A stretch of 46,234 bases of DNA from a virus. Position numbers and translations under genes: made by a program. The stretch lies in the IMG/VR virus record IMGVR_UViG_3300026529_000001. The stretch is one strand, 5' to 3'. This document shows, piece by piece, positions 25,197-46,234 of this stretch (position 1 is its first letter; each line of letters opens with the position of its first letter). The notes under the pieces are model-generated. The model was not told the origin of the DNA and did not search any database. It saw only the letters and a program-made list of their open reading frames with translations.

Positions 25197-25483
25197 TTGT
25201 GGAACATATAGAGTTGGATGTTCGTCGCGACCATTCCTGTAATCAACGCCACCAATATGACCCACATCAACCGGTTCACGGCTTTGATTCGTTCTTCACT
25301 GAGCGCCACCCTAGTCGGTAGATTATTTTCCCTCGTCTGCTGATCGAAGACGCCCTTTTCTTTCCCCGTCGTCGCGATGGCGTTTTCCACGAGGGCCATC
25401 CGTACCTCAAGGTTGCTGACTCGCGAGGCAACCGCGTCGGATTCTCGGGATTGTGGGTGCTCGTCGCTGGGCCAGGGCATCAC
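25193..25483 (-). CDS. C-terminally anchored coiled-coil membrane protein (lysis-cassette accessory)
   Basis: 96 aa. Helical N-terminal part and C-terminal TM (LMWVILVALITGMVATNIQLYMF). Lies between holin and endolysin. Confidence 0.5.
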   Translation of the reverse strand: MMPWPSDEHPQSRESDAVASRVSNLEVRMALVENAIATTGKEKGVFDQQTRENNLPTRVALSEERIKAVNRLMWVILVALITGMVATNIQLYMFHK

Positions 25484-26433: not shown

Positions 26434-26918
26434 AGGTTGATACGGTACATGAAATAGGTGTTTCCAGACCCGAACCAATTAGGATACTCACCGATAACTT
26501 CAGCACCGAATGATTGATTAAGTTGAATGCTTCCGTTTTCATTCGAATGCCCGATTACGGTCGCAAATCCAAGCCCGGAAACAACTCCAAGTATGTGTGC
26601 TTTCAGGATCTTGGCGTACCCCTGTCGTTGGTAGGGTTTCAAAATCCCTGTCGTATAAACATAGAATGTTTTGTCGGCGTCCCAACGGGAATCAATCCTA
26701 AGGTCAGCATCGGTCACTCCAGGCACAGGTTCATCAACATCTCGTACCTTATGTCCATAAGTCTCCCCCGCAAGGATCCCATCGACGAACATCCATCGCG
26801 CTATCGCGGTTTTGAGGACTTCGCGTTTATCCTCAAGATCAAGTGCAAGAACATCCGGGAAATACTCTTCAAATAACATCGTATCTTTGACCGCGACGTC
26901 GCGTTTAAAAATAATCAT
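26430..26918 (-). CDS. GNAT family N-acetyltransferase
   Basis: YVYTTGILKPYQRQGYAKILKAHIL is a motif A (Q/RxxGxA) pattern, with a downstream ...NENGSIQLNQSFGAEV. ATG at 26918 overlaps the ATP-grasp TGA. Low G+C. Confidence 0.65.
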   Translation of the reverse strand: MIIFKRDVAVKDTMLFEEYFPDVLALDLEDKREVLKTAIARWMFVDGILAGETYGHKVRDVDEPVPGVTDADLRIDSRWDADKTFYVYTTGILKPYQRQGYAKILKAHILGVVSGLGFATVIGHSNENGSIQLNQSFGAEVIGEYPNWFGSGNTYFMYRINL

Positions 26919-28471: not shown

Positions 28472-30475
28472 TCAATTCACCCGGAATTTAAGCTTTCCAC
28501 GTAACGTAAGTTCGAGTCGTGGTCCGATGTGCAACACCAGGAAGTCGTCGTCCTTGGCTCCTCCGGGTTGCGGGACCCACTGTTGCGATTCATCACCGGC
28601 TCGGAGGATGCCCACATAGGCCGGCACCCCGAGCGGTTGGTTGGCTGGGAACGGGAGGGCGAAGTACGGGTAGAGGTCATCGATGAGCAGTACCGGCGGA
28701 ATCTCGTCGGTATCGGTGAACGCCTGCTGTGGTGGCTGATAGACGAACGGTCTGAGGTTGAGCTGATAAAGGATCGGGCCGAGCGATTGATCCTCATCGG
28801 AAATGGCCGGGATCGATAGGATTTGTTCATCAGCATCAGGGCGATACAGCGGACCTGGGAGATTGTCGTCGAGAACGAAGTAGACGAGGAAGTCTTCCTG
28901 AAGTTGAGCGAAGATGTCCTCGGTCCACCCACCGAACCACGGAGGCCGAACCGCAATGACGTTGGCATCGGCCTGGACGGGAGCGACCCAGTTCTGCCAG
29001 AAAGCATCTTCGTCGGGGACTGCAACCGGAGGAGCCGATTCATCGGATGCCCATGGTGAGACGACCAGTCGAACGAGAACGGTCGAGCCGAATGTCGGAC
29101 CGAGGTCTTCGTCAACACCGAGCGGAGTGACAGGAGCAATAACGAGATCATCGATCGCCGGGAGCCAGACAAGATTCCGGGCCGCAATGGCCGGGACCCA
29201 GTTCTGCCAGTAGTCCTCATCCACGCCCAGGGCTGGGGCAGGATAGTCACCAGATGCGGCTTCGCTGAGCGGGAGCTGGACAAGGTTCTGGGCTGGGACC
29301 GCAGCAACCCAGTTCTGCCAGGTCTCCGATTCATCGGCAACGGGTTGTGGGGCGGACTCATCCGAGGCCCATGGTGAGACGATGAGTCGGACAACCACCG
29401 TCGAGACGAAGGTCGGGCCGAGATCATCATCGATACCGAGCGTTGGTTGCTGAGTAAGATCGTCGGTTGCCCATCCCAGTTGCACGGACGGGGCAGAAGC
29501 GATCGGAACAGGGACCGACCATACGCTGTCCTCATCACCAACGACCGCAGCAGCACCCGGAGCGAATTCATCGCGTTCGAGGGTTGGTTGTGGGATCGCC
29601 GCTGATGTGAGGAGCGGACCGACCCACAGAGTGTCGTCATCGGCGATCGGTTGAAGGGCGGATTCATCAGACGCCCATGGTGAAAGAACAAGCCGTATCT
29701 GAACCAGCGACCCTGAAACCGCCCATACCACATCGTCATCGAAGGCTGGCTGCGGAGACGGTTCATCGGTCGGCCACGGGAGCCAAACCTGGTTCTGAGC
29801 TGGGACCGCTGGGACCCAATTCTGCCACGTCTCGGACTCATCGGCAACAGGCTGAGGAGCCGATTCATCTGAGGCCCATGGGCTGATAACCCATCGAGTC
29901 TGAACAGTCGATGTGAACGCGAACGATGGGATATCATCATCAACGGTCGCAACGGTCGCCTTGAGGACGTCCGCATCCGGCAGATAGATCGGGAGGAAGA
30001 CCTGCGAGCGCGGAGCGACCCAGTTGATCCAGACGCCGTCCTCATCGGTCGTCGTGTAGAGACGCGGGACATCCTCAGCGTCACGATCAGGAGCATACAG
30101 CGGCCCCAGGAGTTGAGGAACCGGTGCGACCCAACTGAACCACCATTCGTCCTCGGTCGGGAGATAGAGGCGCGGGACGTCATGGGTGGCATCGGGAAGG
30201 TAGAGCGGGCCGAACGTCTGCGGGACCGGTCGGACCCAGGATTGCCATCCCCGTTCACTGTCGTCATCGTTGAGGTGAAGTTTTGGAACATCATCCTGAC
30301 CAGCATCCGGCAGATAGAGGCGGCCGAACGTTTGCGGAACCGGCGGATCGTACGGGACCGGTGGAGCGAACGGACCCAGCGGGACAAGATAATCAATGAA
30401 GAGATCCTGAACCGTCTCAGGATCACGCCACGGATACGGGACCGCCAGTAGCCAGGTGAGCAGGACACGGGGCAC
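28472..30475 (-). CDS. Acidic Trp-rich tandem-repeat protein (virion/fibre-associated?)
   Basis: 667 aa with 7 or more copies of a (D/E)n-W-x-(N/S)-W-V-x-(P/A)-V-P-(Q/A) unit and four near-identical SPWASDESAPQP blocks. GTG start. Lies between fibre-like genes and the ATP-grasp gene. Confidence 0.6.
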   Translation of the reverse strand: MPRVLLTWLLAVPYPWRDPETVQDLFIDYLVPLGPFAPPVPYDPPVPQTFGRLYLPDAGQDDVPKLHLNDDDSERGWQSWVRPVPQTFGPLYLPDATHDVPRLYLPTEDEWWFSWVAPVPQLLGPLYAPDRDAEDVPRLYTTTDEDGVWINWVAPRSQVFLPIYLPDADVLKATVATVDDDIPSFAFTSTVQTRWVISPWASDESAPQPVADESETWQNWVPAVPAQNQVWLPWPTDEPSPQPAFDDDVVWAVSGSLVQIRLVLSPWASDESALQPIADDDTLWVGPLLTSAAIPQPTLERDEFAPGAAAVVGDEDSVWSVPVPIASAPSVQLGWATDDLTQQPTLGIDDDLGPTFVSTVVVRLIVSPWASDESAPQPVADESETWQNWVAAVPAQNLVQLPLSEAASGDYPAPALGVDEDYWQNWVPAIAARNLVWLPAIDDLVIAPVTPLGVDEDLGPTFGSTVLVRLVVSPWASDESAPPVAVPDEDAFWQNWVAPVQADANVIAVRPPWFGGWTEDIFAQLQEDFLVYFVLDDNLPGPLYRPDADEQILSIPAISDEDQSLGPILYQLNLRPFVYQPPQQAFTDTDEIPPVLLIDDLYPYFALPFPANQPLGVPAYVGILRAGDESQQWVPQPGGAKDDDFLVLHIGPRLELTLRGKLKFRVN

Positions 30476-30478
30476 ATT

Positions 30479-32168: not shown

Positions 32169-33839
32169 TCACGGATACGACGGTCGCGACACGATCGTCT
32201 CACCTGAAACCGTAGAATGGGTGCCGACGATCACCTCGGCGATATTGACTTGGTTGTTCTTGAGCGTATTGAAATCGCCCCCAGCCAATTCCCGGATCGT
32301 CGAATTAATCGTTCCGTCTCCTTGGTCGTTCGCCGCACTCACGTAATTACCGGAAATCGTGTTGTTCGTCCCGACCACCGTGATATCGCCCCCCATGAAG
32401 AAATGATTGTTCGTGATGGTGTTATCGTTGAGGGCCTGGATGACAAGACAGTTGGAATAACACCCACGGAGATCGTTATTATCGATCGTAATCTTCCCCG
32501 ATCCCGAAACACCATCCAGATTCAGCAGAATGGAATTTAGTCCTGATCCCGGAAACCACTTCCCTGATCCGGGCGGAGTTTCGACAATTGAGTCGCGGAG
32601 TGTGTTGCCCTGAAACAGAATGGGGCCATATGCGCCGATGACGGCGTGCGTCACGAACGCGAAACAAAATGATTCGACCGTCCCGGTCGTCCCTTCTTGC
32701 GAAATGTAATTGTTGGTGATCCAGATATTCGTGATGGGATCGTTGGCCGTATTCGGTTCGAGGTCAATGATGGTATTCCCGAGCGCGTCGATAAAGGTAT
32801 TCCCATCAATCGTGATGCGGTTCCCGTTCACGATCGCACACGATACCCCACCCCCACCGGGGAAATCTGGAGGAACACCTCCACCGACATTCGTCATCTT
32901 GCATCCCCGCATCACGATATCCTGGCACACGTTGCTGGCATTGTTCGTTTCCCCGATCGTGATCCCGATCGCCGTCGTCTTATTGAACCAGATATTCTGA
33001 TATGTCCCACCGTTCAATAACCCAGTGTTTACCGTTGCTTGTGAAGCGTTCGGGATCTTCCCGGGCATCCCGAGCAACTGGATGTTTCGCATCGAGATAT
33101 TCGTCCGCTGTCCCGCCGCATTCAGCGGACGCATCAAGAACCATGACAAAGGCTGCGACAGTTTGGCGGTGTTCACAGAAGGCGGCGTTCCTGCGGTCCC
33201 GGCCGCTCCCGTATCCGTCCATGTCGTGGAGCCATTCGGTTGCCTGAAATACACATTCTCCCCACCCGAACTCGTCCCGCGATAAAACCGATCATTGATC
33301 GCGCCATTCAGGAACGGGTACGTGATCGTGACCGATCCCGTCGGTCCTGTGACCGCAACAGACACCTCCGCCGATGGTGTTGATTCCCCGCCACCGAATC
33401 CGTCGAGTGACGTCCGTTTGTAATAGTATGTTCCCGTCGCAAGCGTCCCGCCTGTCGAAGAGGCCGAGATTGATGTAATCGTTGGGGGACCTAGAGGTTG
33501 ATCACCTGGGGGTTCTTGGAGAATTGTATCCCACCCGTGCCCCTCGATCAACGTGTTATCGTGCGGGAGAATTGTTTCAGCGGTATTCGAGTTCGTCCAC
33601 GTCCCCGCCCCAAAGCGCAGCGTCCGGAGGCTACTCGCTCCCGTGTTCAGGATGATCCGGGAGGCGATGTTCCCTCCGCCGTTACAGCAGATGACTCCTG
33701 CTGTTCCACCGAGGGCGACATCGGCGGCATTGATTCGGACCCCCCAATCGGTCCCGTTATCGTACAGAGAGATCGCGCAATCATCCCCCGGGGACGCGAC
33801 GGGTTCGGGGGGGCTGTAGAGGAGGTGGAGCCGAGGCAC
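32169..33839 (-). CDS. Tailspike / depolymerase with right-handed parallel beta-helix repeats
   Basis: 556 aa with repeated ...I.GN.(F/I)... rungs (NGNRITIDGNTFIDALGNTII, ITNNYISQEG, ITNNHFFMGGDITVVGTNNTISGNYV). Confidence 0.7.
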   Translation of the reverse strand: MPRLHLLYSPPEPVASPGDDCAISLYDNGTDWGVRINAADVALGGTAGVICCNGGGNIASRIILNTGASSLRTLRFGAGTWTNSNTAETILPHDNTLIEGHGWDTILQEPPGDQPLGPPTITSISASSTGGTLATGTYYYKRTSLDGFGGGESTPSAEVSVAVTGPTGSVTITYPFLNGAINDRFYRGTSSGGENVYFRQPNGSTTWTDTGAAGTAGTPPSVNTAKLSQPLSWFLMRPLNAAGQRTNISMRNIQLLGMPGKIPNASQATVNTGLLNGGTYQNIWFNKTTAIGITIGETNNASNVCQDIVMRGCKMTNVGGGVPPDFPGGGGVSCAIVNGNRITIDGNTFIDALGNTIIDLEPNTANDPITNIWITNNYISQEGTTGTVESFCFAFVTHAVIGAYGPILFQGNTLRDSIVETPPGSGKWFPGSGLNSILLNLDGVSGSGKITIDNNDLRGCYSNCLVIQALNDNTITNNHFFMGGDITVVGTNNTISGNYVSAANDQGDGTINSTIRELAGGDFNTLKNNQVNIAEVIVGTHSTVSGETIVSRPSYP

Positions 33840-33856: not shown

Positions 33857-34375
33857 TCACTCCTGGCTTTCCACTGAAAATTCGAACGGAATGCTGGCCG
33901 TACCGCAGTGGCTCCACAGATCGATCGAGTTGGTCGTGTTGTTCGCCACGATCGTCAAGAGGGAGTCTGGGTTCGGGGCGACCCACCCGCCAGGACCCGT
34001 CGCGCCCGAGCCGATCGCCTTGAGCAACGTCGGACCACCTGTCCCGACCGTCAAGCTGACCCCGGACGCGGCATACTGGGCACCGTGCGTGGCCGCCTGG
34101 AACCCGGGGTCTCCGGGGGCCGGAGTAATCGCCGTCCCTCCGGTCGAGGCGAGGGTCGTCCACCGCTGGATGCGGTACGTGATGCCGGAGATCTGAGTCA
34201 GACCGGCGCCACGCCCTGTGACGTAGACCGCTTGCACGCTCACGTTCCGCGACTGGTTCGTGCCGCTCGTTGTTGCAGCCGCGCCGGTCGAGATTCGAAA
34301 ATGATCGGTCGCGGTGTTCGTGGCAGCGGACGTGGTGAGCGTCACGCCTGGAGCGTCGGTGAATACAAGTGGCAT
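33857..34375 (-). CDS. Hypothetical beta-rich virion protein
   Basis: ATG at 34375 lies 4 nt after AAGGAGGAAG. 172 aa. Confidence 0.55.
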   Translation of the reverse strand: MPLVFTDAPGVTLTTSAATNTATDHFRISTGAAATTSGTNQSRNVSVQAVYVTGRGAGLTQISGITYRIQRWTTLASTGGTAITPAPGDPGFQAATHGAQYAASGVSLTVGTGGPTLLKAIGSGATGPGGWVAPNPDSLLTIVANNTTNSIDLWSHCGTASIPFEFSVESQE

Positions 34376-34376
34376 A

Positions 34377-34778
34377 TCATCTTCCTCCTTTGAGTAACAG
34401 CTGTAGTTCGTGGTCTCTGTCAATCATCCGTTGAAAGTCAGGCTTCGGAAGCACTCGTCCATACTTCTCGATCTGGAACTGCTCGACGCGCTTCCAGTAC
34501 ACCTCATCGGGCATCAGCATCGTCCCCGCGAGGTTCCCCCATTGTTCAGCGCATTTGGGGCACAGCGCGAACGCGAAGTCGATGTTCTCGATCGGGTAGT
34601 ACCCATCGAGGACCCCGCAGTTCGCACAGTAGATCGGCTGCCAGTTGATACTCCCCACAAGAGGGTGATAGCCGCGGACGATCCCTTTGGCTTCACCATT
34701 GAGTCGGGAGTCGGGGAGGAGGTAACTGGGGGCGTCCGTACGGTCGATCTTCTTCACGTCGTCGTCGGTCCAACTCAT
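34377..34778 (-). CDS. Hypothetical protein with CxxC...CxxC zinc-binding motif
   Basis: 133 aa containing YCANCG...LCPKCAEQW. Confidence 0.5.
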   Translation of the reverse strand: MSWTDDDVKKIDRTDAPSYLLPDSRLNGEAKGIVRGYHPLVGSINWQPIYCANCGVLDGYYPIENIDFAFALCPKCAEQWGNLAGTMLMPDEVYWKRVEQFQIEKYGRVLPKPDFQRMIDRDHELQLLLKGGR

Positions 34779-34979: not shown

Positions 34980-35323
34980 GGCAAGGTCGTGCGGTTATCC
35001 CACACGCCGGTCAGCACCTGGATCTTCGTCACGACGAAATCTCCGGCCACCGGACCGGCGGTCCACGTAAACTGGCGGATCGTCCAAGTGGCATCGCCGG
35101 TTGCAGCCCCTTGAGTGTTCACGCCTTCGTAGCGGAGCCTGTTCTGCGAATCCCCCGGATTGTAATAATCTAGCAATACCATCTGGTTGTTGCCGGTTTG
35201 GTCTTCGGTAACAACCCGTTGTTGCTTCGTGGTCTGACCGTTCTCGTTGATCCGCTGAATGGCATCCAAATAGTTGTCGACGCCAGCCTCGAACAGCGTG
35301 ATAGGAGTAGCTACATTCGCCAT
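34970..35323 (-). CDS. Hypothetical virion-module protein
   Basis: ATG at 35323 lies 9 nt after GGAGAG. 117 aa (MANVATPITLFEAGVDNYLDAIQ...). The tracked longer ORF's 5' extension is antisense to the HNH gene. Confidence 0.55.
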   Translation of the reverse strand: MANVATPITLFEAGVDNYLDAIQRINENGQTTKQQRVVTEDQTGNNQMVLLDYYNPGDSQNRLRYEGVNTQGAATGDATWTIRQFTWTAGPVAGDFVVTKIQVLTGVWDNRTTLPWV

Positions 35324-35337
35324 TGAATATTCTCTCC

Positions 35338-35823
35338 ATGTATGTTCGCAAATCGTGGCCTCTCGATAAGCGTTTCTGGTCGCACACCAGAATAATCGAT
35401 GGATGCTGGGTTTGGACTGGTGCACACAACCGAAAATATTACGGGCAAATCAGTATGTATTTCCCGCCGAATAACGCTCGGAAAATTATCTCGGCCCATC
35501 GATTTTCGTGGGAACTTCATCATGCCAAGGAAGTCCCCGCTGGAATGATGGTTTGTCATACTTGTGATAACCCATCCTGCGTCAACCCAGCACATCTTTA
35601 TTTAGGAACTGCCAAAACCAACAAACACGATGCCGTGAAGAAAATGCGACATACTTACGGCACACGCATCCACCGCAGTATTTTGACTGAATCGCTGGTG
35701 CGTAGAATTCGTGATCTCCACAGAACAAACTTCACGATCTCCAAGATCCGAGATCTTCTCGAAACCAGTTACCAAGCGATTTATGGTGTCGTAACCGGTG
35801 AAACTTGGAAGCACGTTTCTTAG
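35338..35823 (+). CDS. HNH homing endonuclease (antisense to the operon), copy 1
   Basis: CWVWTG...YG...AHRFSWELH...MVCHTCDNPSCVNPAHLYLGT is an HNH_3-type motif with a C-terminal HTH-like tail ending TWKHVS. Low G+C. ATG 35338 (or TTG 35323). Confidence 0.8.
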   Translation: MYVRKSWPLDKRFWSHTRIIDGCWVWTGAHNRKYYGQISMYFPPNNARKIISAHRFSWELHHAKEVPAGMMVCHTCDNPSCVNPAHLYLGTAKTNKHDAVKKMRHTYGTRIHRSILTESLVRRIRDLHRTNFTISKIRDLLETSYQAIYGVVTGETWKHVS

Positions 35824-36011
35824 CCACGCTTCTTTCTCCTTCGCGAGTTCCAATGCTTGCTACACCACGTACAGTTGCAGCGTTCCACCGGCCAGCCGTG
35901 CTTATGCGGCCACACTTCACCCCGCGCAACCCGATACAGTACGGTCGTGAGTTTTTCAAGGGTCGCCGCCGTCGGAGGCGAAAAACCTAGTTTCCTGCCC
36001 ACAGCACTCAC
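35820..36011 (-). CDS. Hypothetical small basic protein
   Basis: 63 aa. GTG start overlaps the upstream TGA (GTGA). The 3' end overlaps the HNH stop by 4 nt. Confidence 0.4.
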   Translation of the reverse strand: MSAVGRKLGFSPPTAATLEKLTTVLYRVARGEVWPHKHGWPVERCNCTWCSKHWNSRRRKKRG

Positions 36012-36859
36012 CGTACCGCCACCCTGGGGAGGAGGTGGTCGAGGAAGTCCGTCTCTGCTCCGTGTTCCGTGCCGATCCGCTTCAACGCCAAGAGATCCCG
36101 GATAAGATGCTGCCCACCGATCAATCCAGGATTAGGCTTGATGTAGGCGTGTTGGCCGATCCGCTTATCCAATCGGAGCGCCGGCATGATCTCATCCCAC
36201 TCCGCGCCGATCCGCTCCCCAAGATCGGCTAAAGTGGTCGCGGCGGCAATCGAGCTCGCGAGACAGGTATTGATCGCCATCTTGCACAGTTCCGCGCTCT
36301 CGTATTTCATCACGAGGACCGGACACTTAAACTGCTTCACCGCATCCTCAACCAACCACGGGAGCGGAGCGTCGGGGACAACACTCCCGAGAATGATCCG
36401 CTCAGGATGTAAGAACCTCTCGACCGCTTGGCCGAGCACCATCGTCTCGACCCAATAGAAGACTGGTACTCCACCCTTCGAGAGCCGGAGTTCGTGAATC
36501 GACCGCGTAAACCCCGGGGACACCTGGCTCATGATGACGAGAAACACCGTCGAGGCGATGTACGGAAGAGCCTCTTCAATGAGTGATCGGATCGCCGATT
36601 CATCCCCTCGCCCATCGGCTCCCAATGGGACATCCTGGGACACGATCACCATCGAGCACTCGCGTAATCGAGAGAGGTCGGTCGTCCGGGGGTTCGCCAT
36701 CAAGAGTTCGAGCCGAGGTTCAGGCTTCGTGAGCGGGGTTCGTTCGCCCACCTCAAGGACCAACCCCACCCGGTACGCCCAACACGCGGCCGCCACCTGT
36801 CCCATGTGCGACATCCCGAGGAAACCGGTCGTCACCCGATCATCCCGAGGTAGCTCCAT
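36008..36859 (-). CDS. UDP-glucose/GDP-mannose dehydrogenase family protein, truncated and degenerate
   Basis: The layout matches UGDH: GFLGMSHMG (GxGxxG-like), VIMSQVSPGFT, FLHPERIILG, ESAELCKMAINTCLASSIAAATTLADLGERIGAEWDEI...LDKRIG. The GGxCxxKD site reads GGQHLIRD (Cys->His). No C-terminal UDP-binding domain. Confidence 0.55.
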   Translation of the reverse strand: MELPRDDRVTTGFLGMSHMGQVAAACWAYRVGLVLEVGERTPLTKPEPRLELLMANPRTTDLSRLRECSMVIVSQDVPLGADGRGDESAIRSLIEEALPYIASTVFLVIMSQVSPGFTRSIHELRLSKGGVPVFYWVETMVLGQAVERFLHPERIILGSVVPDAPLPWLVEDAVKQFKCPVLVMKYESAELCKMAINTCLASSIAAATTLADLGERIGAEWDEIMPALRLDKRIGQHAYIKPNPGLIGGQHLIRDLLALKRIGTEHGAETDFLDHLLPRVAVR

Positions 36860-37893
36860 GCGACGTTTGCCGCTCCAAGAGCGTCCCACATCCACATGAG
36901 CCAGACGGCATAGGAGGCTAACCCGACCGAAACAGCAGGGATGTGGATACCCAGAAGCGCCGTTCCCCAAACCCAGAGGTACGCCCCAAGTCCCACGAGG
37001 CCAGCATGATGAGCGATCTCCAGGACCACGTTATGGGCGGTATCGTGGATCTCGGCTCGCTGATCTGGTACCGGAGCAATGAGCGTGTTCGGTCCCCACC
37101 CGAAGATGGGTTTCCGGGCGATCTGGGAGGCGATGTATCCCCAGAGGAAGGCTCGGTCCTCGGCGACGTTCTTGACGGGCGTCCGGTCGAAGAGGCGCTG
37201 CGACCAAAAAGCCCCGCAGGCAATCCCCGCAAGAATCGGGAGGACCCCCCAGACCGAGTATGTCACCCCCGCCCAGACCAATGTCACGATCATCCCGAGC
37301 ATCCCCGCCCGCGACCCCGTCACGAACAGGGTCATGGAGAACAACACTACAGGAACGATCCAGTAGATCCCCGACATGGCGAACCAGACCGATACCGGCA
37401 ACAGGAGGCACAAATACCCGCCCAATAATCCCGGATTCCCGATCGTCCCCCACGCCCCGTCCGTTTTCTCCTTCGCCCCGCCGATCCGTCTGGCCCACGA
37501 TTGATTCTGGGCCTGGGCGAGGGCGACAAGGCAAACGGCCATCCCCACCCCTACGGACCATTCCAAGAGGAGATTCCGGGCCTCTACGGGCATCCTGGCA
37601 ACGACTAAGGCCGTCACTCCATAGGCGAGGGTGGTGATCACCCCATCCCCGCGTCTGGTTCGGGGAATAACCCCCATCCGAGCGTTCCTGGAGAACATGG
37701 CCCCGACGAGCATCGCCCCTACGAATGCTGCAATCGGAAGATCCAAGGGAGTAGGGGTCAGGTGGGCGAACAGCGCACCGATGACCATGATGACGAGGCC
37801 GAGGTGCGTAATCGCGCACTTGACCTCGGTGAAGGCCGCCATGGGTGTTACAAGAACGGTGAAGAACGCCCCGACCAGCATCGCGGTGTTCAT
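36832..37893 (-). CDS. O-antigen ligase/polymerase-like (Wzy_C family) polytopic membrane protein
   Basis: 353 aa with about 10 hydrophobic spans. ...GNPGLLGGYLCLLLP...TGSRAGMLG...RAFLWGYIASQIARKPIFGWGPNT...HNVVLEIAHHAGLVG matches the Wzy_C signature. ATGA coupling. Confidence 0.7.
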   Translation of the reverse strand: MNTAMLVGAFFTVLVTPMAAFTEVKCAITHLGLVIMVIGALFAHLTPTPLDLPIAAFVGAMLVGAMFSRNARMGVIPRTRRGDGVITTLAYGVTALVVARMPVEARNLLLEWSVGVGMAVCLVALAQAQNQSWARRIGGAKEKTDGAWGTIGNPGLLGGYLCLLLPVSVWFAMSGIYWIVPVVLFSMTLFVTGSRAGMLGMIVTLVWAGVTYSVWGVLPILAGIACGAFWSQRLFDRTPVKNVAEDRAFLWGYIASQIARKPIFGWGPNTLIAPVPDQRAEIHDTAHNVVLEIAHHAGLVGLGAYLWVWGTALLGIHIPAVSVGLASYAVWLMWMWDALGAANVAWSYLGMIG

Positions 37894-38348
37894 CGGACGG
37901 CGTGGTCGAACGGTTCAGCCGTCACGACGATATCCTTCGTCTCTCCGTTCGGGCTCTGGGTCTCGGGGGGAGGCTTGTCCGTGATCTGCACCCGTTGCAC
38001 CATGAGGGGACCGATCCCCGGCGGCATGGTCGTAATCAGCATTTCCACCTCGCCGAGGGAGAATTGGTCCTTCATGAAGAACAGCATCGTGTCCTGATTG
38101 ACCCCCATGAAGTACGTGATAACCCGGAATTGGATCAGGTTCCACCATGTCCGCTTCGGGGTGAACCGATCCACCTCGTCCCGGTCTCTTTTCCACCCGG
38201 CCCGGAATCCCGAGAACGTCAAGCGGACGAGCGGACGAGGATCGAACCCTTGGAGCGTCCACAGGATCTTACCCAAGCCGAAGAATCTCCGGGTCGCGTG
38301 AGAAGAGTTGGTCGCCGAAATACCCGACATACGTGAGCCCGGCCGCAT
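37890..38348 (-). CDS. Hypothetical protein of the glycan cluster (start uncertain)
   Basis: 152-aa ORF whose 5' 80 nt overlap the methyltransferase. Its 3' end is ATGA-coupled to the Wzy_C gene. Confidence 0.35.
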   Translation of the reverse strand: MRPGSRMSGISATNSSHATRRFFGLGKILWTLQGFDPRPLVRLTFSGFRAGWKRDRDEVDRFTPKRTWWNLIQFRVITYFMGVNQDTMLFFMKDQFSLGEVEMLITTMPPGIGPLMVQRVQITDKPPPETQSPNGETKDIVVTAEPFDHAVR

Positions 38349-38952
38349 GGAGGCGCTCGAACGTCTCGATATGGTCCCGGTTGTGCCACCCGCGTCGCAT
38401 GGAGCACATCTCGACGTAGACGGTCTCGGTCTGTTCGAGTGTCCGTTCAGCGCCTTGGAACACTTCCAGCTCGGTCCCCTCCACGTCCACCTTCATGAAG
38501 TCGATGTGAGTGACTCGCTTCTCGGCCCAATCATCGAGCCGCTGGACCTCGACCATCTCCACACCGATCTCGCCGTTGTCGTGCATCATGTACGGTTGGA
38601 TCGGCAGGAACGAACTCGATTCCGGCCTCATGTAACGCCGCATAGGCAGCGTAGAATTCACGGTCCCAAGGCCAATATCCCACGTCGAGATCCTCCCCGG
38701 AAATCCGAACGGGACCTTGGCAAGTTGGTTGAACGACGCCTGCTGGGGCTCGAAGCAGTAGATAGTTGCTTCGGAAAAGGTCGTCGCGAACAAGGTCGTC
38801 ATACGTCCAATTGACGCTCCGATGTCCAGGACCGTCCTGACCGGTCTGTGTTCCCGGATCCTCTGGATCTGCCGGACCAGCCAATACAGATCGTGTTCCC
38901 GGGTCAGACGATGCTTCCACGGCCGGAGGAACTCCTTGAATCCGGTCAGCAC
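38269..38952 (-). CDS. FkbM-family SAM-dependent methyltransferase
   Basis: VLDIGASIGRMT...IYCFEPQQASFNQL...IDFMKVDVEGTELEVFQGAE fits the Methyltransf_21/FkbM pattern. Confidence 0.7.
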   Translation of the reverse strand: MLTGFKEFLRPWKHRLTREHDLYWLVRQIQRIREHRPVRTVLDIGASIGRMTTLFATTFSEATIYCFEPQQASFNQLAKVPFGFPGRISTWDIGLGTVNSTLPMRRYMRPESSSFLPIQPYMMHDNGEIGVEMVEVQRLDDWAEKRVTHIDFMKVDVEGTELEVFQGAERTLEQTETVYVEMCSMRRGWHNRDHIETFERLHAAGLTYVGYFGDQLFSRDPEILRLG

Positions 38953-39079
38953 CGTGCACCTGCTGGATGTACCGCTCCCAGAACCAGAGGAACACCCCGA
39001 TGAGGAGCCACGGGACCGCCATCCCGCCGATGACGATGAACGCGGTCATACTGAGGCGTCCGACGTCGTGCCAATACAT
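38953..39079 (-). CDS. TM-helix-encoding ORF head (frame stays open to 38531 over the methyltransferase)
   Basis: ATG at 39079 lies 4 nt after GGTGG. MYWHDVGRLSMTAFIVIGGMAVPWLLIGVFLWFWERYIQQVH is a convincing TM segment. Beyond 38952 the frame turns G/P/R/D-rich (off-frame-like). Confidence 0.3.
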
Positions 39080-39104: not shown

Positions 39105-42100
39105 TCATGGAGGAGGTCCTGGGGCGTAGACCCGACCTGGGGGGTGCTTTCGCATCACCTGTTGGATCGAGAACGGTTCCTCTTTTCGTCGCTCCTTCTG
39201 CTGGATACCGAATGGGGTCCCCAGTTTCACCCCATGTTGGCGGACAAACTGTTCGACAACCGAACCATTGACCGGGACCCCTTCATCCTTGAGCGCCTGC
39301 GTCACCAATTTCCGTAACCGATCGTTGTAGGCGTGCGCGGTCCGTTGAGCCTGTTCACCTTTGCCCTGTTCCTGTAACCCTGTAATCTCAGCCTGCAATC
39401 GTGCCTTTGTGAACATAAACTGACGGACTGACGATTCGGCCGGCGTGAGCTTCGGTTGTGTCATGACCGGCGAGAGGATGGTCTGCCCAATGCCCGTCCC
39501 TTGTTGGATCATCTGGCGAATTGAGTACGGGGCAATTCCTCCCGAAGCCACCTTGAGTGCCTGAACAAGATTCTCGGTCGGACTGTGCCCTGGGGTCGTC
39601 CATTCCTCGCGACGATGTGACAGTTCGAGCGCCGACCCAACCAACGGACTCGGCGAAACCATACTCTCGACCGCGTAATCGAGCGGGAGCGTCCCTTCGA
39701 GCGTACGCCCAAGATTGTAGGCGGGAGCCAACACCCCGGCACGCCGAGCTCGGGTTCTCGGATTGCCCGTCATCTGCTGGAACACATGATCCATCGCCGG
39801 GACGACACCCAGAAGCAGAATCCCCGCCATCGCCAACTTGTCGGCCGCGGCAGCGCGTTCGGCGAATGGAACACGCCCGAGCAATCCGGTCGCCATCTGA
39901 CCCCACGCCTTGAGAACCCCATAGTGGTACGGGGCAAAGATCACGAATCCGCGGTCTCGGAACACCCGCGAGAGATCGCCCGACCCGAGGATCGTCCCCG
40001 GCAATCGGTAGTTTGGGATGAACCGATCGGTCTGGCGGATCGCATCGATCCGAGACATTCCCTCCATCTCGCGCTCGAACACGCGCTGGAGATAGAAGAA
40101 ATCGTTCGTCGCCCAGGTCGCATGATGGGACAGCCACCACGGGGCATCAACTACATCGCGAGCGGTCCGGCCGAGATGGGTCGCCATTCCGTCAATGGTG
40201 CCGGGATTCTCCTTGAGTTCACGCCGTGCCATATCAAGAAGTGACGATCGAACTTCCGCAGCGGTCCCATTTTCTCGCATGAGACCGCCACCATGTCGCA
40301 TTACGTCGATGTAGTCCTCGTTGACGTGAAATGCGGCGTTGAACGCTTTCACGCTGGAGATCCGCAACCGATTCCAGGATGCCGGGTTGAGCATCCGTGC
40401 TGTCCCTCGATCCACCACCCAGTTGAACGCCACGTTTGGTGTATGAATCAAGGGGTTCACGAACCCGATGTTCACCGCCGACCGACTTAACCAACGGAGT
40501 GCCGCGAGAATATCGCTCGACGTCCGGCTCTGCGGGATTGCGGCATTGAACGCCCGAGCGACACGAGGATCCATCCGCCATCCCATAAACTGCGGGACCT
40601 CAGTCGAGGTCCACCCCTTCGGGGCCTGCCACGCAAGATCAGGAGGCATGGCAAGTTTCAGGAAATCCGGGTCTTGTTTGAGATGCTCAAGGAATGCGTT
40701 CGAGCGAGCGATCTGCATCGTTTCCAGGTGATCGACCACCGACGAGAACAGCGCATTCTTGTAGTATCGCTGTGGGGTCTGCGCTTCGATCTCGGCCGTC
40801 GTCGGTTCGCCCAGGAGATACCGTTTGCCGTCCTTACCGATGAACACCTTATCTTCGAGACTCGCCGGATCATACCGAGCCTTGACCTGGGTGATCTGCT
40901 GTTGAACCGCCTTGAGCCGTTCCTGGAGGGCATCGAATTTCTTGACGACAGGAATTCCGCCGATCGCCCGAGCCTCCTGGAATGCCTGCACCAACTTCGC
41001 TAATCGAGATTGCTCCCTCCGAAGTTCAGGGCCGAGTTTCGGGACGATCGTGCTGATCTCATCGGCGAGCGTGTCGGCCACTTTGCCGAGATTCCGAGCA
41101 AGCGCGTTCACGACCGCATTGACCCGAGCCGGGGAACGTTCCGACCATCCCCGGAACACGTCGATCTGGTGGGTCAGTTTCTCCAACCGTCGTTCCATTG
41201 GCGCAAGATCCCGGGTCATGAGTTCCTCGTAACTCTTAAGCCGCGCCATTGTCCCGAGCGATTCCCCAGACGGACTCACCAACCGTCCGCTGATCTGCGC
41301 GACCACTTGCTTTGTCCCGGTCGCGACATCCGTCAACGCGACGTATCGGCGGTGCTTGAACGCATCCGTGGTCGTTCGGAGAATACTTGTGCGTCCGCTC
41401 ACCATTCCTTGACGGACACGTTCCACCAACGACCCTTCACCGAGCGCGAACCGACGAATGTATCCAACCCCTGTCACTGGACGGAATTGCTTCGGGAGCG
41501 ATTGCTTGATCTCTTCGGTTGAATCGATGATCCCCGATGTCACGTTGTACCAATGTCGTTGCGTCTCGGTAAGTGCGCTTGGATCTCGTACTTCCCGAGC
41601 GTGGTAAATAGCCTCCCAATCCTTCGGGGTCATCTCTTGCCCGATCGTCCGCATCAGATTGCGTGCATCGACTCCGGCTGCGTCCGCTTGCCGATGGATC
41701 TGATAGAGTTGGTCGCCGAGATCACCCGTGAACGTCTGGACCTGATGCTGCTTCTGGAGATAGTCGGCGATCGGCTTCGTGTTGATCGCACCCTTCTCGC
41801 TCTCAAGCGTTTTCATCAATGCGGGCGAGAGCGGGAGCTTCAGTTGGATCGGCGGGTGAACAGCCTTGGTCGCCTGCGCCGCCTGTGCTTGCACGGCGGA
41901 TTCTTGAGCTTTCACTAACGTCAATTGCGCGGCATCCTTTACGACCGCCCGCTTGGCCGCTTTCTGGGCTGCATCTTCAGCGGCTCGGACCATCGAGGCA
42001 GACCGTATGACCGGAGCGGCAATCCCCGTCATGAGCGGGATCTTCCCGATGGTTTCCCCAACAGTCTCGGGATCGGCGACACGCTTCCCGGTCGCGGGGT

Positions 42101-42425
42101 CAATGTGCCCGGCCAAGGAGAGCGGGGACGGGAGATTCATCACGGGCCGGATCACGTCCCCTGCCTGTTTGAACCCCGGAGCGTTCGCAATCGCCGATTG
42201 CACCTGCCCGACCCGCTGGCCGAGCCCAAGGGCACCTTGCGCCGCCCGCTGCCACCATGCGGGCTGGGGAGTGGTCGCCTGTGGCGTCGGCGCGGTCCCC
42301 CCGTACTTCTGGTGAAAGTCACCCCACGGATCGCCTTGGGGAGTCGTTCCCGCCTGCGGTGTCGTGGGTTGTGCGGGCGTCTCCCCACCGTACTTCTTCG
42401 TGAATTCCGCCCACGGATCGATCAT
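39105..42425 (-). CDS. Large internal virion / ejection-type protein (putative)
   Basis: 1106-aa ORF, ATGA-coupled. N-terminus has duplicated DPW(A/G)(E/D)F..KYGG motifs and Ala/Gln-rich helices. No enzymatic motif recognised. Role is a guess from size and position. Confidence 0.45.
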   Translation of the reverse strand: MIDPWAEFTKKYGGETPAQPTTPQAGTTPQGDPWGDFHQKYGGTAPTPQATTPQPAWWQRAAQGALGLGQRVGQVQSAIANAPGFKQAGDVIRPVMNLPSPLSLAGHIDPATGKRVADPETVGETIGKIPLMTGIAAPVIRSASMVRAAEDAAQKAAKRAVVKDAAQLTLVKAQESAVQAQAAQATKAVHPPIQLKLPLSPALMKTLESEKGAINTKPIADYLQKQHQVQTFTGDLGDQLYQIHRQADAAGVDARNLMRTIGQEMTPKDWEAIYHAREVRDPSALTETQRHWYNVTSGIIDSTEEIKQSLPKQFRPVTGVGYIRRFALGEGSLVERVRQGMVSGRTSILRTTTDAFKHRRYVALTDVATGTKQVVAQISGRLVSPSGESLGTMARLKSYEELMTRDLAPMERRLEKLTHQIDVFRGWSERSPARVNAVVNALARNLGKVADTLADEISTIVPKLGPELRREQSRLAKLVQAFQEARAIGGIPVVKKFDALQERLKAVQQQITQVKARYDPASLEDKVFIGKDGKRYLLGEPTTAEIEAQTPQRYYKNALFSSVVDHLETMQIARSNAFLEHLKQDPDFLKLAMPPDLAWQAPKGWTSTEVPQFMGWRMDPRVARAFNAAIPQSRTSSDILAALRWLSRSAVNIGFVNPLIHTPNVAFNWVVDRGTARMLNPASWNRLRISSVKAFNAAFHVNEDYIDVMRHGGGLMRENGTAAEVRSSLLDMARRELKENPGTIDGMATHLGRTARDVVDAPWWLSHHATWATNDFFYLQRVFEREMEGMSRIDAIRQTDRFIPNYRLPGTILGSGDLSRVFRDRGFVIFAPYHYGVLKAWGQMATGLLGRVPFAERAAAADKLAMAGILLLGVVPAMDHVFQQMTGNPRTRARRAGVLAPAYNLGRTLEGTLPLDYAVESMVSPSPLVGSALELSHRREEWTTPGHSPTENLVQALKVASGGIAPYSIRQMIQQGTGIGQTILSPVMTQPKLTPAESSVRQFMFTKARLQAEITGLQEQGKGEQAQRTAHAYNDRLRKLVTQALKDEGVPVNGSVVEQFVRQHGVKLGTPFGIQQKERRKEEPFSIQQVMRKHPPGRVYAPGPPP

Positions 42426-43902: not shown

Positions 43903-44430
43903 ATGCCACGAATCTCTCGCCCGTTTGTGGAACGCTTCTGGTCACAAGTGGATAAAACTGGTCCATGCTGGCTATGGATGGGTCCATGCTCCCCCAGAGG
44001 ATATGGCAAAACATGGTTCTATGATTCCGATTTGCCACGATCAAAACGTAGCCAACGCGCCCATCGCGTGGCTTGGGTATTAACATATGGCTCTATCCCT
44101 GAAAATCTTCTCGTCTGTCACCACTGCGACAACCCTTCGTGCGTGAATCCTGACCATCTATTTTGTGGAACGCAAAAAGAGAATCGGGTTGATGCGAAAC
44201 AAAAAGGACGTACCGCAACCGGCATGAACAATGGCGTACACACCCGTCCTGACCGTGTTCGTCGCGGGGAGCATCATTGTAATTCGAAACTTACAGAAAC
44301 AGATATTCATGCGATCCGATCCAGTTTCACCGTAAAGCATGGATCAGCAGCAGCACTTTCGAGAAAATATCGCGTATCACACCCGACCATCGCCGCCATT
44401 CTCCAACGACGAACTTGGAAACATATCTAG
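43903..44430 (+). CDS. HNH homing endonuclease (antisense to the operon), copy 2
   Basis: CWLWMG...GYG...AHRVAWVLTYG...LVCHHCDNPSCVNPDHLFCGT, with a C-terminal tail ending RRTWKHI. Paralog of 35338..35823. Low G+C. Confidence 0.8.
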   Translation: MPRISRPFVERFWSQVDKTGPCWLWMGPCSPRGYGKTWFYDSDLPRSKRSQRAHRVAWVLTYGSIPENLLVCHHCDNPSCVNPDHLFCGTQKENRVDAKQKGRTATGMNNGVHTRPDRVRRGEHHCNSKLTETDIHAIRSSFTVKHGSAAALSRKYRVSHPTIAAILQRRTWKHI

Positions 44431-45843: not shown

Positions 45844-46234
45844 TCACCAGAGTTCCAGCGGACCCCGTTGCGCCCCGCGAGGTTCGCCCGCCGATCCAGT
45901 CCCGGGGGCTTCCCCTCCGACCCGACCCTCGGAGCGCGCTTCCCCACCCACCGACATTCCTGGGGCGGGTGGAGTGGGTCCTCCTGGGGTTGCTCCTCCC
46001 AACGGTGACATAGCTGGTGGGGGAGGTTGGGGAGCTTGAGGCAGTGCCGTGTTCACGGGTAACGGTGCAGGTGCCGGGACTTGCCCAATCGGTGGAGTGG
46101 TCATTTGCGACGTTCCCGGTGGGGCCGCTTGAGGTGACGGAGGCGGCTGGACGGATTGTCCCGACAGACTCGGGAGGCCGCCCCCCATCATCCCCCCCAT
46201 TCCGGTCTGCGCGAATGGGCCGCCCCCACCCCCG
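45844..46234 (-). CDS. 3' part of the junction-spanning Gly/Pro-rich protein
   Basis: Pro-rich sequence (...QPPPSPQAAPPGTSQMTTPPIGQVPAPAPLPVN...PPPPAMSPLGG...) changes to G/E/R-rich over the last ~35 codons. The ORF continues upstream through the repeat into 100..155. Confidence 0.5.
   Translation of the reverse strand, partial: GGGGGPFAQTGMGGMMGGGLPSLSGQSVQPPPSPQAAPPGTSQMTTPPIGQVPAPAPLPVNTALPQAPQPPPPAMSPLGGATPGGPTPPAPGMSVGGEARSEGRVGGEAPGTGSAGEPRGAQRGPLELW
46136..46234. repeat. Terminal direct repeat, copy 2 (identical to 1..99)
   Basis: Exact 99-nt match to the window start. Confidence 0.95.

Follow-up and report, generated by a model that had tools for sequence, protein, structure and literature searches.

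What is a run of genes that appears equipped for envelope-glycan remodelling doing among the late virion genes of a tailed phage? The stretch of DNA analysed here (the window, 46,234 nucleotides) is a 46-kb genome of an uncultured phage that is complete and circular, its ends overlapping by 99 bp and being joined in a second assembly. The run lies in the minus-strand late region, with virion genes on both sides and on the same strand, and no integrase family was matched in a profile search of the complete genome, both as proposed in the initial annotation. It is bounded upstream by a 1106-aa ORF (39105-42425, minus strand), which is presumed to encode a large virion or internal protein; its earlier label of internal protein found no profile support, with no match in Pfam or PHROG and no relative in IMG/VR. 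A lysozyme gene (24762-25265) is located further downstream, and no promoter-like or terminator-like sites exceeded shuffle expectation. The region is best explained as a mosaic accessory segment inserted into the late operon of an integrase-less tailed phage of the SU10 type whose genome is complete.

The ORFs were found on the minus strand mostly as first described, and they are tightly coupled. The first, which encodes a transmembrane (TM) helix, starts at 39079, 25 nt past the stop of the 1106-aa ORF; the methyltransferase gene and a 152-aa ORF overlap by 60-80 nt, the 152-aa ORF and the Wzy-like gene share an ATGA overlap, the Wzy-like gene and the dehydrogenase-like gene overlap by 28 nt, and a 63-aa ORF follows through a GTGA overlap at the upstream stop codon. 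The methyltransferase, 152-aa, Wzy-like and dehydrogenase-like ORFs show strong third-position GC periodicity, the frames of the run coding one after another, and their GC content is that of the genome. Normal GC and GC3 indicate a long residence in the phage.

The 353-aa product of the Wzy-like gene (36832-37893, minus strand) is a membrane glycan ligase-like protein of the Wzy_C family, matched by PF04932 with 38.7 bits (curated cut-off 31.7). It has about 12 membrane helices and a loop of about 50 residues (237-288), which the helix order of the model places on the predicted periplasmic side. The AF2 model (pLDDT 94.5, pTM 0.93) has a sole significant fold match in the PDB, the ligase WaaL (7tpg; E 2e-4, probability 1.0, TM 0.57). 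Profile alignment to this structure pairs R195 with R191, R247 with R265, D284 with E310 and H287 with H313 (phage and WaaL, respectively), the His motif reading DTAHN in the phage protein and EHAHND in WaaL, and R81, R195, R247 and H287 are conserved at 90 % or more among relatives that are 20-48 % identical. These alignments show that the predicted Arg/Arg/His active site is retained in this compact protein. The conserved His is essential in Wzy_C ligases and O-oligosaccharyltransferases (O-OTases) (PMC9829042), and the Arg residues of Wzy_C-type ligases have been proposed as pyrophosphate binders (PMC12800693). The NCBIfam RfaL model was not matched by the phage protein; where its relatives match NCBIfam weakly, the models are those of ligases. 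Judged by its fold and motifs, the protein would be a ligase of the WaaL/O-OTase type and less probably a polymerase, both being among the functions that the initial annotation listed for Wzy_C proteins.

A classical seroconversion polymerase, which would join O-antigen or capsule repeat units through an altered linkage in the manner of Pseudomonas phage D3 or Salmonella phage epsilon15, with the upstream TM peptide inhibiting the host polymerase and the methyltransferase adding a further epitope change, is considered an unlikely alternative. The Pfam family Wzy_C includes polymerases besides ligases, and seroconversion genes typically adjoin the spike gene (as in P22 and Sf6), a position that the Wzy-like gene shares, but the only match in the PDB by both structure and sequence is the ligase WaaL, with its His motif and two Arg aligned. 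A one-helix ORF heads the cluster and another (91 aa, with an N-terminal TM helix) lies just upstream of the Wzy-like gene in the related contig L006, although the small ORF of the window reads on, without a stop codon, past the point at which an inhibitor peptide ought to terminate. Phage-borne Wzy genes are on record (PMC9241936; PMC3854497); however, a tblastn search of 50,697 deposited phage records gave no similarity to the Wzy-like protein and no PHROG family was matched, indicating that it is unrelated at the sequence level to known phage polymerases. The ligase models matched by its relatives and the integrase-less genome also argue against a polymerase. Seroconversion cassettes (Iap-Wzy-beta-Oac of P. 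aeruginosa D3, Salmonella epsilon15, the A. baumannii prophage Wzy (PMC9241936) and gtrABC/oac of P22/Sf6) are comparable in that phage genes alter the surface glycan of the host, often beside the tailspike gene and often acting on the phage's own receptor. They belong, however, to temperate phages, whereas the complete genome analysed here has no recognisable integrase; their polymerases contrast with a ligase-like enzyme, and the Wzy-like gene is a same-strand member of the late operon, with genome-like composition, and not a separately transcribed moron.

An exhaustive HMMER search showed that the relatives of the Wzy-like protein form a loose clade of 329-376 aa. A copy that is 28-48 % identical, on the same strand and among structural genes, occurs in about six contigs of uncultured phages, and all the readable contexts (L002, L003, L004, L006/7 and L009) are phage-like, with structural genes on the same strand. 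Large ORFs lie near the gene in L004 (1108 aa) and in L006 (1274 aa), the latter having no detectable homology to the 1106-aa ORF of the window. Five or more of the other phage contexts have full-length relatives at these identities, which implies long purifying selection. Across these contigs the Wzy_C gene alone recurs: the 152-aa ORF, the dehydrogenase-like gene and any homologue of the methyltransferase are absent from all the others that carry it. The run is therefore a mosaic, not one conserved module, and the earlier idea of one coherent cluster is not borne out. No glycan-synthesis partner lies alongside the gene in the related contigs, which fits an enzyme that would use a donor made by the host; the absence of a glycosyltransferase noticed initially extends to all of the about 75 ORFs scanned, in which no such family was matched. 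The order Wzy-like gene, Zn-ribbon gene, 188-aa gene and spike gene is common to the window and L003. The closest relative, L009, shows it up to the 188-aa gene, its contig ending before any spike gene, and there the Wzy-like and Zn-ribbon genes abut, neither a dehydrogenase nor an HNH segment separating them. Within 10 kb of the Zn-ribbon/188-aa module, 31 IMG/VR contigs have no Wzy-like ORF, and such an ORF accompanies a related capsid gene at only 2 of 80 loci, where it is a different, AT-rich gene on the opposite strand. The patchy occurrence means that virions of this kind can do without the gene.

Among the best cellular relatives (E 1e-27 to 1e-18), 7 of 13 loci have pilB, pilC or pilin genes adjoining, and the nearest ones are located between pilB and pilC, which is a setting of pilin O-glycosylation; several loci of the same group have no pilus genes. 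This link to type IV pilus genes suggests that the acceptor may be a protein and not LPS, although it is based on the neighbours of cellular relatives and not on those of the phage gene. The phage protein shares the polytopic helical architecture of WaaL from Cupriavidus metallidurans (7TPG/7TPJ), but it falls some 50 residues short of the 7tpg chain (403 residues), with 15 % identity. WaaL is encoded in a core-LPS locus and the phage protein in a late operon, and the lipid A-core acceptor is only putative for the latter, whose host need not have LPS. With about 460-600 aa and additional periplasmic domains, the known O-OTases are larger proteins. Like the phage protein, TfpO/PilO, TfpM, PglL and PglS contain a Wzy_C domain, the conserved His of which is essential in O-OTases (PMC9829042), and the en-bloc transfer from Und-PP-glycan that O-OTases carry out resembles the role proposed below. 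Type IV pilus operons, the home of the phage protein's nearest cellular relatives, are also where TfpO and TfpM classically occur. Nothing at the sequence level placed the phage protein within the proteobacterial O-OTase families, and its gene has no adjoining gene for an acceptor pilin. No published viral O-OTase was found in the literature searched.

Re-decoration of the host surface by the phage through this WaaL-like ligase is the reading preferred here, with moderate confidence. The enzyme would take a glycan prebuilt by the host on undecaprenyl pyrophosphate and, working on the outer side of the cytoplasmic membrane, pass it en bloc to an acceptor on the cell surface, perhaps a protein (type IV pilin or an S-layer protein, for example) or a lipid core, thereby changing the surface of the infected cell; identities of 30 % cannot reveal donor or acceptor. 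Since the fibre/spike module follows shortly after the gene, masking of the phage's own receptor would be the likeliest benefit, with less wasteful re-adsorption of progeny or a block to superinfection. Glycosylated pilins are a known barrier to pilus phages (bioRxiv 10.1101/150227). Besides the gene's patchy occurrence and the derivation of the pilus link from cellular relatives, several points weigh against this reading: late expression would give little time for remodelling, the sub-threshold beta-helix match in the spike is more in keeping with a polysaccharide receptor than with a pilus, one partner gene is broken and the methyltransferase start is only putative. Of the surface-remodelling idea raised initially, an intact ligase-like enzyme and a methyltransferase are kept, whereas the dehydrogenase-like gene is broken and a single module is lacking.

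The methyltransferase (227 aa, with a putative GTG start; 38269-38952, minus strand) belongs to the FkbM family, whose full-length domain is matched above curated cut-offs by Methyltransf_21 (PF05050; E 1.8e-14, 54.7 bits against 22.7) and by the NCBIfam model fkbM_fam (TIGR01444; 86.2 bits against 37.7); PHROG 8156 also matches (E 7e-21) and the SAM motif VLDIGASIG is intact. Profile searches thus support both the Wzy_C and the FkbM assignments made earlier. The enzyme most likely O-methylates a sugar or a lipid-linked glycan on the cytoplasmic side, where the TM helix encoded upstream may tether it. This one-helix segment (38953-39079, minus strand; MTAFIVIGGMAVPWLLIGVFLWFW) is in another frame and may not belong to the methyltransferase: its ORF formally reaches 38531, out of frame across the methyltransferase gene, but it is clearly coding (GC3 0.93 in its own frame) for the first 42 codons or so, and near 38952 the coding signal moves by +1, to the frame of the methyltransferase. 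The 152-aa ORF (37890-38348, minus strand; 146 aa according to the Logan gene caller) encodes a soluble protein and is clearly coding (GC3 0.78-0.88 in its own frame). It had no match in Pfam, PHROGs, NCBIfam, PADLOC, the PDB or phage records, and its single-sequence AF2 model, with a pLDDT of 34, is too poor to be used.

It is very unlikely that these genes are directed to the phage itself, the methyltransferase modifying virion (tail) proteins and the Wzy_C protein serving assembly, lysis timing or undecaprenyl recycling. In favour, they sit among virion genes and would be made simultaneously with them, tail-protein methylation has been reported to be important for phage infectivity (PMC13445384), and the virion glycosylation genes of mycobacteriophages adjoin structural genes. 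Against it, no glycosyltransferase was found here and a separate lysozyme gene is present. The activities known for the FkbM family are methylations of hydroxyl groups on sugars or small molecules. The active site of WaaL-type enzymes faces the periplasm (PMC12800693), whereas the assembly of tailed virions is cytoplasmic.

The dehydrogenase-like gene (36008-36859, minus strand; as a raw ORF it extends to 36970) codes for a truncated homologue of UDP-glucose/GDP-mannose dehydrogenases (283 aa). The N-terminal Rossmann-type and central dimerisation domains of these enzymes (3VTF, 4A7P) are recognisable (UDPG_MGDP_dh central domain, E 4.5e-14), but the whole C-terminal, nucleotide-sugar-binding domain (about 138 residues) is gone, without a remnant anywhere in the window. 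TIGR03026 gives 86.9 bits, below its cut-off of 189.8, and the 45-48 % identity to cellular proteins of about 430 aa covers only their residues 5-297. The motif GGSCFxKD of canonical enzymes (GGNLERD in the subfamily) reads GGQHLIRD, with His at the position of the catalytic Cys (Asn in 70 of 70 aligned full-length subfamily members), GxGxxG reads GMSHMG, and 79 of 99 subfamily-invariant positions are kept. The protein is a degenerate member of a Cys-less branch and probably not a dehydrogenase. Being truncated and degenerate, the gene is not to be counted as encoding a working sugar-nucleotide enzyme; it would be a remnant.

Such a gene raises the possibility, judged improbable, that the whole run is decaying cargo, horizontally acquired host DNA under loss and with no current role. 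Besides the missing domain and the 20 of 99 invariant positions lost, the frame switch at the methyltransferase start (38952), the HNH gene adjoining the truncation, the lack of the three partner genes in other Wzy-carrying phage contigs and that of the dehydrogenase segment in L009 are in line with decay. The four main ORFs, however, keep their GC periodicity and genome-like GC, the Wzy-like protein retains every conserved active-site residue, is confidently modelled and has full-length relatives in other phages, and the methyltransferase is intact by its scores and SAM motif, so erosion is credible for the dehydrogenase-like gene alone.

The 63-aa ORF (35820-36011, minus strand) is doubtful as a gene: its coding signal is weak (GC3 merely 0.53-0.65), family searches gave no match and it is not called in an independent Logan annotation. 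Directly after the truncated gene, in a low-GC island (0.46, against 0.59 for the genome), lies a gene for an HNH homing-type endonuclease on the plus strand (35323-35823; HNH_3, E 8e-10; PHROG 1872, E 4e-30), of which a second copy, 34 % identical, is found at 43903-44430. The gene for the Zn-ribbon protein (133 aa; 34377-34778, minus strand) heads the conserved module found after the Wzy-like gene in related phages; the protein is 68 % identical to the product of the ORF directly following that gene in L009 and weakly homologous to that of a 97-aa ORF after the L003 gene (pairwise E 7e-6). Its partner, the 188-aa protein (33857-34423, minus strand), encoded upstream of the spike gene, is 88 % identical in L009 and 34 % in L003, and the two-gene module is present in 29-31 IMG/VR contigs. 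The region is bounded downstream by the putative tailspike (556 aa; 32169-33839, minus strand), a label given earlier for which the profile evidence is a sub-threshold Beta_helix match (E 9e-4); a 134-residue stretch of this protein is 37 % identical to the product of the 871-aa ORF that occupies the corresponding place in L003.

A 99-bp exact direct repeat is found at the two ends of the window (1-99 and 46136-46234), and a second assembly (Logan SRR5438309, contig L001) joins these ends, indicating that the genome is complete, either circular or circularly permuted, and about 46.1 kb long. Nearly every gene is located on the minus strand, and the virion and packaging genes that were recognized code for an SU10-type portal, a major capsid protein, an adaptor and a large terminase. 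Upstream of the glycan cluster lie the genes for two large proteins of 479 and 1106 aa that have no annotation, and downstream of it come a Zn-ribbon gene (34377-34778, minus strand), a gene for a 188-aa protein (33857-34423, minus strand), a 556-aa putative tailspike with a weak beta-helix signal (32169-33839, minus strand), more large proteins and a GH24 lysozyme (24762-25265, minus strand). A protein with a C39-like cysteine peptidase domain is encoded just upstream of the lysozyme (25990-26478, minus strand), at the end of the late region, and neither a holin nor a spanin was identified. Integrase, recombinase and partition families gave no matches among the roughly 75 ORFs scanned, so the lack of a recognizable integrase pointed out in the initial annotation holds for a complete genome. 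Small HTH_3 and LexA-type DNA-binding proteins are encoded, so a non-integrative carrier state is conceivable. No tRNA genes or pilus genes were found in the window, and megablast of 16 kb against the phage collection gave no match, that is, there is no DNA-level resemblance to deposited phages.

The cluster is part of a succession of seven minus-strand ORFs with almost no spacing, delimited by ORF scanning: the 1106-aa ORF (39105-42425), an ORF with a one-helix head (starting at 39079), the 227-aa FkbM-type methyltransferase (38269-38952), a 152-aa ORF (37890-38348), the 353-aa Wzy_C-family protein, hereafter the Wzy-like protein (36832-37893), a 283-aa dehydrogenase-like protein (36008-36859; 320 aa as raw ORF) and a 63-aa ORF (35820-36011). 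The 152-aa ORF overlaps the 353-aa ORF in an ATGA, the 283-aa ORF overlaps the 63-aa ORF in a GTGA, and the remaining junctions of the run are overlaps of 28-80 nt. In the annotated frames, one after another, third-position GC climbs to 0.7-0.9, showing that these ORFs are coding rather than products of chance in a GC-rich genome. Coordinates, overlaps and periodicity thus agree with the tightly coupled run originally described. For the 63-aa ORF the coding signal is weak, and an independent gene caller did not predict it. The 152-aa ORF had no match in any profile library, the PDB or deposited phages, and its structure model from a single sequence (pLDDT 34) was unusable. Sequence searches of the PDB with the methyltransferase, the 152-aa ORF and the 188-aa protein gave no matches, a PADLOC search returned nothing meaningful, and the direct repeats flanking the cluster were short pairs at chance level. 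No promoter- or terminator-like sites beyond shuffle expectation were detected between 33.5 and 43 kb; the layout is consistent with co-transcription of the cluster with the late genes.

Both family assignments of the initial annotation, Wzy_C and FkbM, were borne out by profile searches with scores above the curated cut-offs. The methyltransferase matches PF05050 (54.7 bits, cut-off 22.7, covering 1-163 of the 173 profile positions) and TIGR01444 (86.2 bits, cut-off 37.7, covering 1-142 of 143); it is full-length, and the SAM motif VLDIGASIG is visible. The one-helix head that precedes it (38953-39079, minus strand) comprises 42 codons with a third-position GC of 0.93 and encodes one transmembrane helix in a different frame. 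The coding signal shifts +1 from this head into the methyltransferase frame, exactly at the GTG of the latter, and the junction is identical in both assemblies, which derive from one sample. The frame of the head stays open for 139 further codons, with no stop before 38531, and has no homolog; synonymous resampling of the overlap of this 182-aa ORF gave p = 0.006 in a test that is anti-conservative across 22 calibration genes, so the value does not discriminate. The head could be a small membrane protein or the start of an overlapping gene, or a frameshift or indel could fuse it to the methyltransferase, which would then be anchored in the membrane.

The Wzy-like protein belongs to the Wzy_C superfamily (PF04932, 38.7 bits against a gathering cut-off of 31.7, E 1.1e-9, residues 182-305) and is predicted to function like a WaaL or O-oligosaccharyltransferase (O-OTase) ligase, on the basis of its sequence and structure model. 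A word-indexed protein search was too insensitive for this protein, and its relatives were collected by an exhaustive HMMER search (E ≤ 1e-3), which recovered 433 sequences, the closest being 329-376 aa long and 30-48 % identical. AlphaFold, with 60 of these relatives as alignment, produced a confident model (pLDDT 94.5, pTM 0.93), and the AF2 model together with a hydropathy scan indicates about 12 helices, so that the protein would be a polytopic one of the inner membrane, with a large external loop. When the model was compared with the PDB by Foldseek, the O-antigen ligase WaaL (7tpg_B) was the sole significant structural match (E 2.1e-4, probability 1.00, TM 0.57/0.51), the runner-up having an E of 0.44, and WaaL was also the only match when a profile of the relatives was searched against PDB sequences. 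An HMM alignment to 7tpg, counted along the printed alignment, pairs R195 with R191, R247 with R265, D284 with E310 and H287 with H313 (phage/WaaL). R247, D284 and H287 are conserved and located in or bordering this loop (237-288), while R81, R195, R247 and H287 are kept in at least 90 % of the relatives; from the helix order in the model, these last four residues would all lie on the same membrane face. The conserved His is indispensable to Wzy_C ligases and O-oligosaccharyltransferases (PMC9829042), and the Arg residues have been proposed to bind the pyrophosphate group of the carrier lipid (PMC12800693). The fold and the conserved, aligned Arg and His residues make the phage protein look catalytically competent and, as far as sequence and model can tell, look like a compact WaaL-type ligase. 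The fold, the Arg pair and the catalytic His are those of WaaL, whereas the curated RfaL model and the rest of NCBIfam do not match the window protein (RfaL is matched only by the cellular relative P0008, with 22.8 bits against a cut-off of 277) and the gene is in a phage late operon instead of a core-LPS locus.

Wzy_C proteins may also act as O-antigen polymerases, and a polymerase of the kind encoded by phages D3 and epsilon15 would be a classical explanation for such a gene in a phage, but it is an unlikely one here. The fold and motifs are ligase-like, and no sequence relation links the window protein to the phage Wzy proteins known so far: a tblastn search of 50,697 phage records (E 1e-3) returned nothing, no PHROGs family was found at E 0.01, and BFVD returned only a weak fold match, to an Arthrobacter phage protein (E 0.046). 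Moreover, D3 and epsilon15 are temperate seroconverting phages with an integrase and a cassette expressed in the lysogen, unlike this complete genome, which has no integrase match. In phages of this type a small hydrophobic inhibitor of the host polymerase is encoded next to the gene, and a possible counterpart here is the one-helix coding segment at 39079-38953, but its frame meets no stop before 38531.

The best non-phage matches (P0008, P0011, P0016, P0017 and P0019; E 1e-27 to 1e-18) cluster closely together, and a genome scan located this group in MAGs that carry the labels Armatimonadota, Sysuimicrobiota and 'uncultured Firmicutes'. The P0008 gene is located between pilB and pilC, with pilin genes downstream, and pilB/pilC lie within 5 kb of the Wzy_C gene in 7 of 13 cellular loci, with a pilin-like gene in one more and none of these in the others. 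Location of a Wzy_C gene within a pilus operon is a classic sign of pilin O-glycosylation by TfpO or TfpM (PMC9829042), and pilin glycosylation shields Pseudomonas from pilus phages (bioRxiv 10.1101/150227). The Wzy_C domain and its essential His are common to the phage protein and to the pilin or general O-oligosaccharyltransferases TfpO, TfpM, PglL and PglS. Adjacency to an acceptor pilin gene or to pilus genes, expected of such enzymes, is seen only in the nearest cellular relatives of the phage protein. Because these relatives adjoin pilus genes and there is precedent in pilin glycosylation, a protein acceptor can be proposed for the phage enzyme, as a lead drawn by analogy from the neighbors of its relatives. 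As for the bacteria themselves, Wzy_C-family genes are between or beside pilB and pilC at seven cellular loci (L008, L014, L015, L017, L018, L020 and L024), an arrangement that looks like pilin O-glycosylation in these MAGs. We know of no study of pilin O-glycosylation in those phyla.

Among viruses, all close relatives on readable contigs have a phage-like setting and are on the same strand as the neighboring structural genes. In the uncultured phage contigs L003 and L004 the Wzy-like gene is between capsid-region genes and an SU10 adaptor; in L006/L007 it comes after two ORFs, of 1274 aa and 91 aa, the shorter of which has an N-terminal transmembrane helix; in L002 its neighbors are unannotated Thr-, Ser- and Gly-rich ORFs. 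L009, the one locus recovered by a metagenome scan, carries a 45 % identical copy followed immediately by homologs of the Zn-ribbon gene (68 %) and the 188-aa gene (88 %) of the window. The order is the same in L003, where a spike-like gene comes next, with a 134-residue stretch 37 % identical to the 556-aa protein. Homologs of the methyltransferase, the 152-aa ORF and the dehydrogenase-like gene are absent from all of these contigs (L002, L003, L004, L006/L007 and L009); of the four genes, only the Wzy-like one recurs there. IMG/VR yielded no relatives when scanned with the Wzy-like protein, with the 1106-aa protein or with an alignment of four sequences. None of the 31 IMG/VR contigs carrying the Zn-ribbon/188-aa pair has a Wzy-like ORF within 10 kb, and a survey of 80 loci with a related capsid gene (flanks of ±10 kb only) found a copy in just two, there AT-rich and on the opposite strand. 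The gene had been considered part of the lineage core, given its place in the structural modules of L003 and L004, an idea discarded owing to its absence from the 31 module contigs and from 78 of the 80 capsid loci. The picture that emerges from sequence is that of a recurrent accessory gene, neither core nor freshly inserted, resident long enough to have acquired a genome-like composition.

Several observations concern the same contigs. The two capsid loci, L073 and L075, have an AT-rich Wzy_C-like gene at about 13.5-15.1 kb (minus strand), on the opposite strand and a few kb downstream of the SU10-type capsid gene, which looks like an independent, moron-style acquisition from the same enzyme superfamily. 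The genes for the 133-aa Zn-ribbon protein and the 188-aa protein form a two-gene module (window 33857-34778, minus strand) present in 29-31 IMG/VR contigs (L028-L058) of 4.5-136 kb; these share almost nothing else with the window phage (blastp 1e-5), three of them matching its 667-aa ORF too, and the module may be a portable adaptor for attachment of fibers or spikes. L003 also encodes an Acb5-family protein (Pfam PF26761) at 364-849 on the plus strand.

The last large gene of the cluster (36008-36859, minus strand) was first described as UDP-glucose-dehydrogenase-like, and its membership of the family stands, while a working enzyme is not supported. Of the three family domains, Pfam detects just the central one and, below threshold, the N-terminal one; the TIGR03026 score of 86.9 bits falls short of the cut-off, 189.8. 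The closest relatives are cellular proteins of about 430 aa, 45-48 % identical, with all three family domains; homology ends near residue 297 of 433, leaving about 138 residues missing, and no remnant of the C-terminal domain, which binds the nucleotide sugar, was found anywhere in the window. The phage copy has GGQHLIRD aligned to the GGSCFPKD of 3vtf, 4a7p and 3gg2, with His at the column of the catalytic Cys, and keeps 79 of 99 subfamily-invariant residues, against an average of 98.6 % in subfamily members. On these sequence features it is best not regarded as a functional dehydrogenase. A low-GC HNH gene on the opposite strand comes directly after it, and the entire dehydrogenase-like/HNH segment is missing from L009; a split of the gene by the HNH insertion was rejected, as there is no leftover C-terminal domain downstream of the truncation. 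That the cluster is decaying cargo is improbable as an account of the whole, and credible for this gene only. Even here the codon signal is normal, so a non-catalytic role is conceivable, and the protein may, for instance, bind the host enzyme through its retained dimerization domain.

The reading preferred for the cluster as a whole, to which about even chances are given, is that the Wzy-like protein is a ligase. This enzyme would take an undecaprenyl-PP-linked glycan built by the host and attach it to a surface acceptor, the cytoplasmic methyltransferase would be an optional modifier, and masking of the receptor would be the payoff for a phage with fiber or spike genes just downstream. The intact active site, the lack of a glycan-synthesis partner in the related phages and the recurrence beside receptor-binding genes favor this proposal; it is weakened by the patchy distribution of the gene and by its late timing, which leaves a short window for surface remodeling. 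A role directed at the phage itself, either in virion modification or in carrier recycling, seems very improbable, considering that no glycosyltransferase is present and that the predicted active site is on the wrong side of the membrane. A narrower version of the ligase proposal is more doubtful, with perhaps a slim chance of being right in full: that this is the first viral O-oligosaccharyltransferase, transferring a host lipid-linked glycan to a surface protein and so masking the receptor in a non-lysogenic cycle, in a family that recurs in structural operons of uncultured soil podophages. Type IV pilin would be the best candidate acceptor, owing to the gene location in the nearest cellular relatives.

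Alteration of surface glycans by phages is a known kind of system. To our knowledge, it is known almost entirely from integrating seroconverting phages with polymerases, glucosyltransferases or acetylases. What is new here is a ligase-type enzyme that recurs in the late operons of several uncultured phages, the sole complete genome among them having no integrase, and whose nearest kin are in pilus operons; the full-text literature searched, that of one library, gave no account of a WaaL-like ligase or O-OTase encoded by a phage. If host glycans are transferred to a receptor protein or lipid, this would be a new phage route to receptor masking, and 353 aa would be a very small natural WaaL/O-OTase scaffold, of interest for glyco-engineering. 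Possible side products are the pilus-operon Wzy_C genes of Armatimonadota and Sysuimicrobiota and a branch of uncharacterized, Cys-less nucleotide-sugar dehydrogenases.

This branch is the subfamily to which the relatives of the dehydrogenase-like protein belong (P0164-P0282; loci L026 and L027), a large uncharacterized cellular group of proteins of about 430 aa in which the canonical GxGxxG and GGSCFxKD motifs read GLSHLG and GGNLERD, respectively. Asn is found at the catalytic-Cys column in each of the 70 full-length members aligned, and, judging from these motifs, their chemistry must differ from the four-electron oxidation. Two members that were looked up are in sugar-nucleotide/glycan clusters, beside a GT2-SDR fusion or heptose-type sugar genes. 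Elsewhere in the window, two HNH endonuclease genes (35323-35823 and 43903-44430, both on the plus strand) are 34 % identical to one another and form opposite-strand islands that interrupt the minus-strand late operon and are low in GC (0.46 and 0.49, the genome having 0.59). Finally, two near-full-length ORFs overlap in different frames (667 aa, 28472-30475, and 666 aa, 28477-30477, both on the minus strand). The real protein seems to be the 667-aa one, which abounds in P, V, D and L and has PVPQTFGxLYLPDA...DVPxLY motifs recurring in its first 150 residues, the 666-aa frame being its Ser/Arg-rich shadow.
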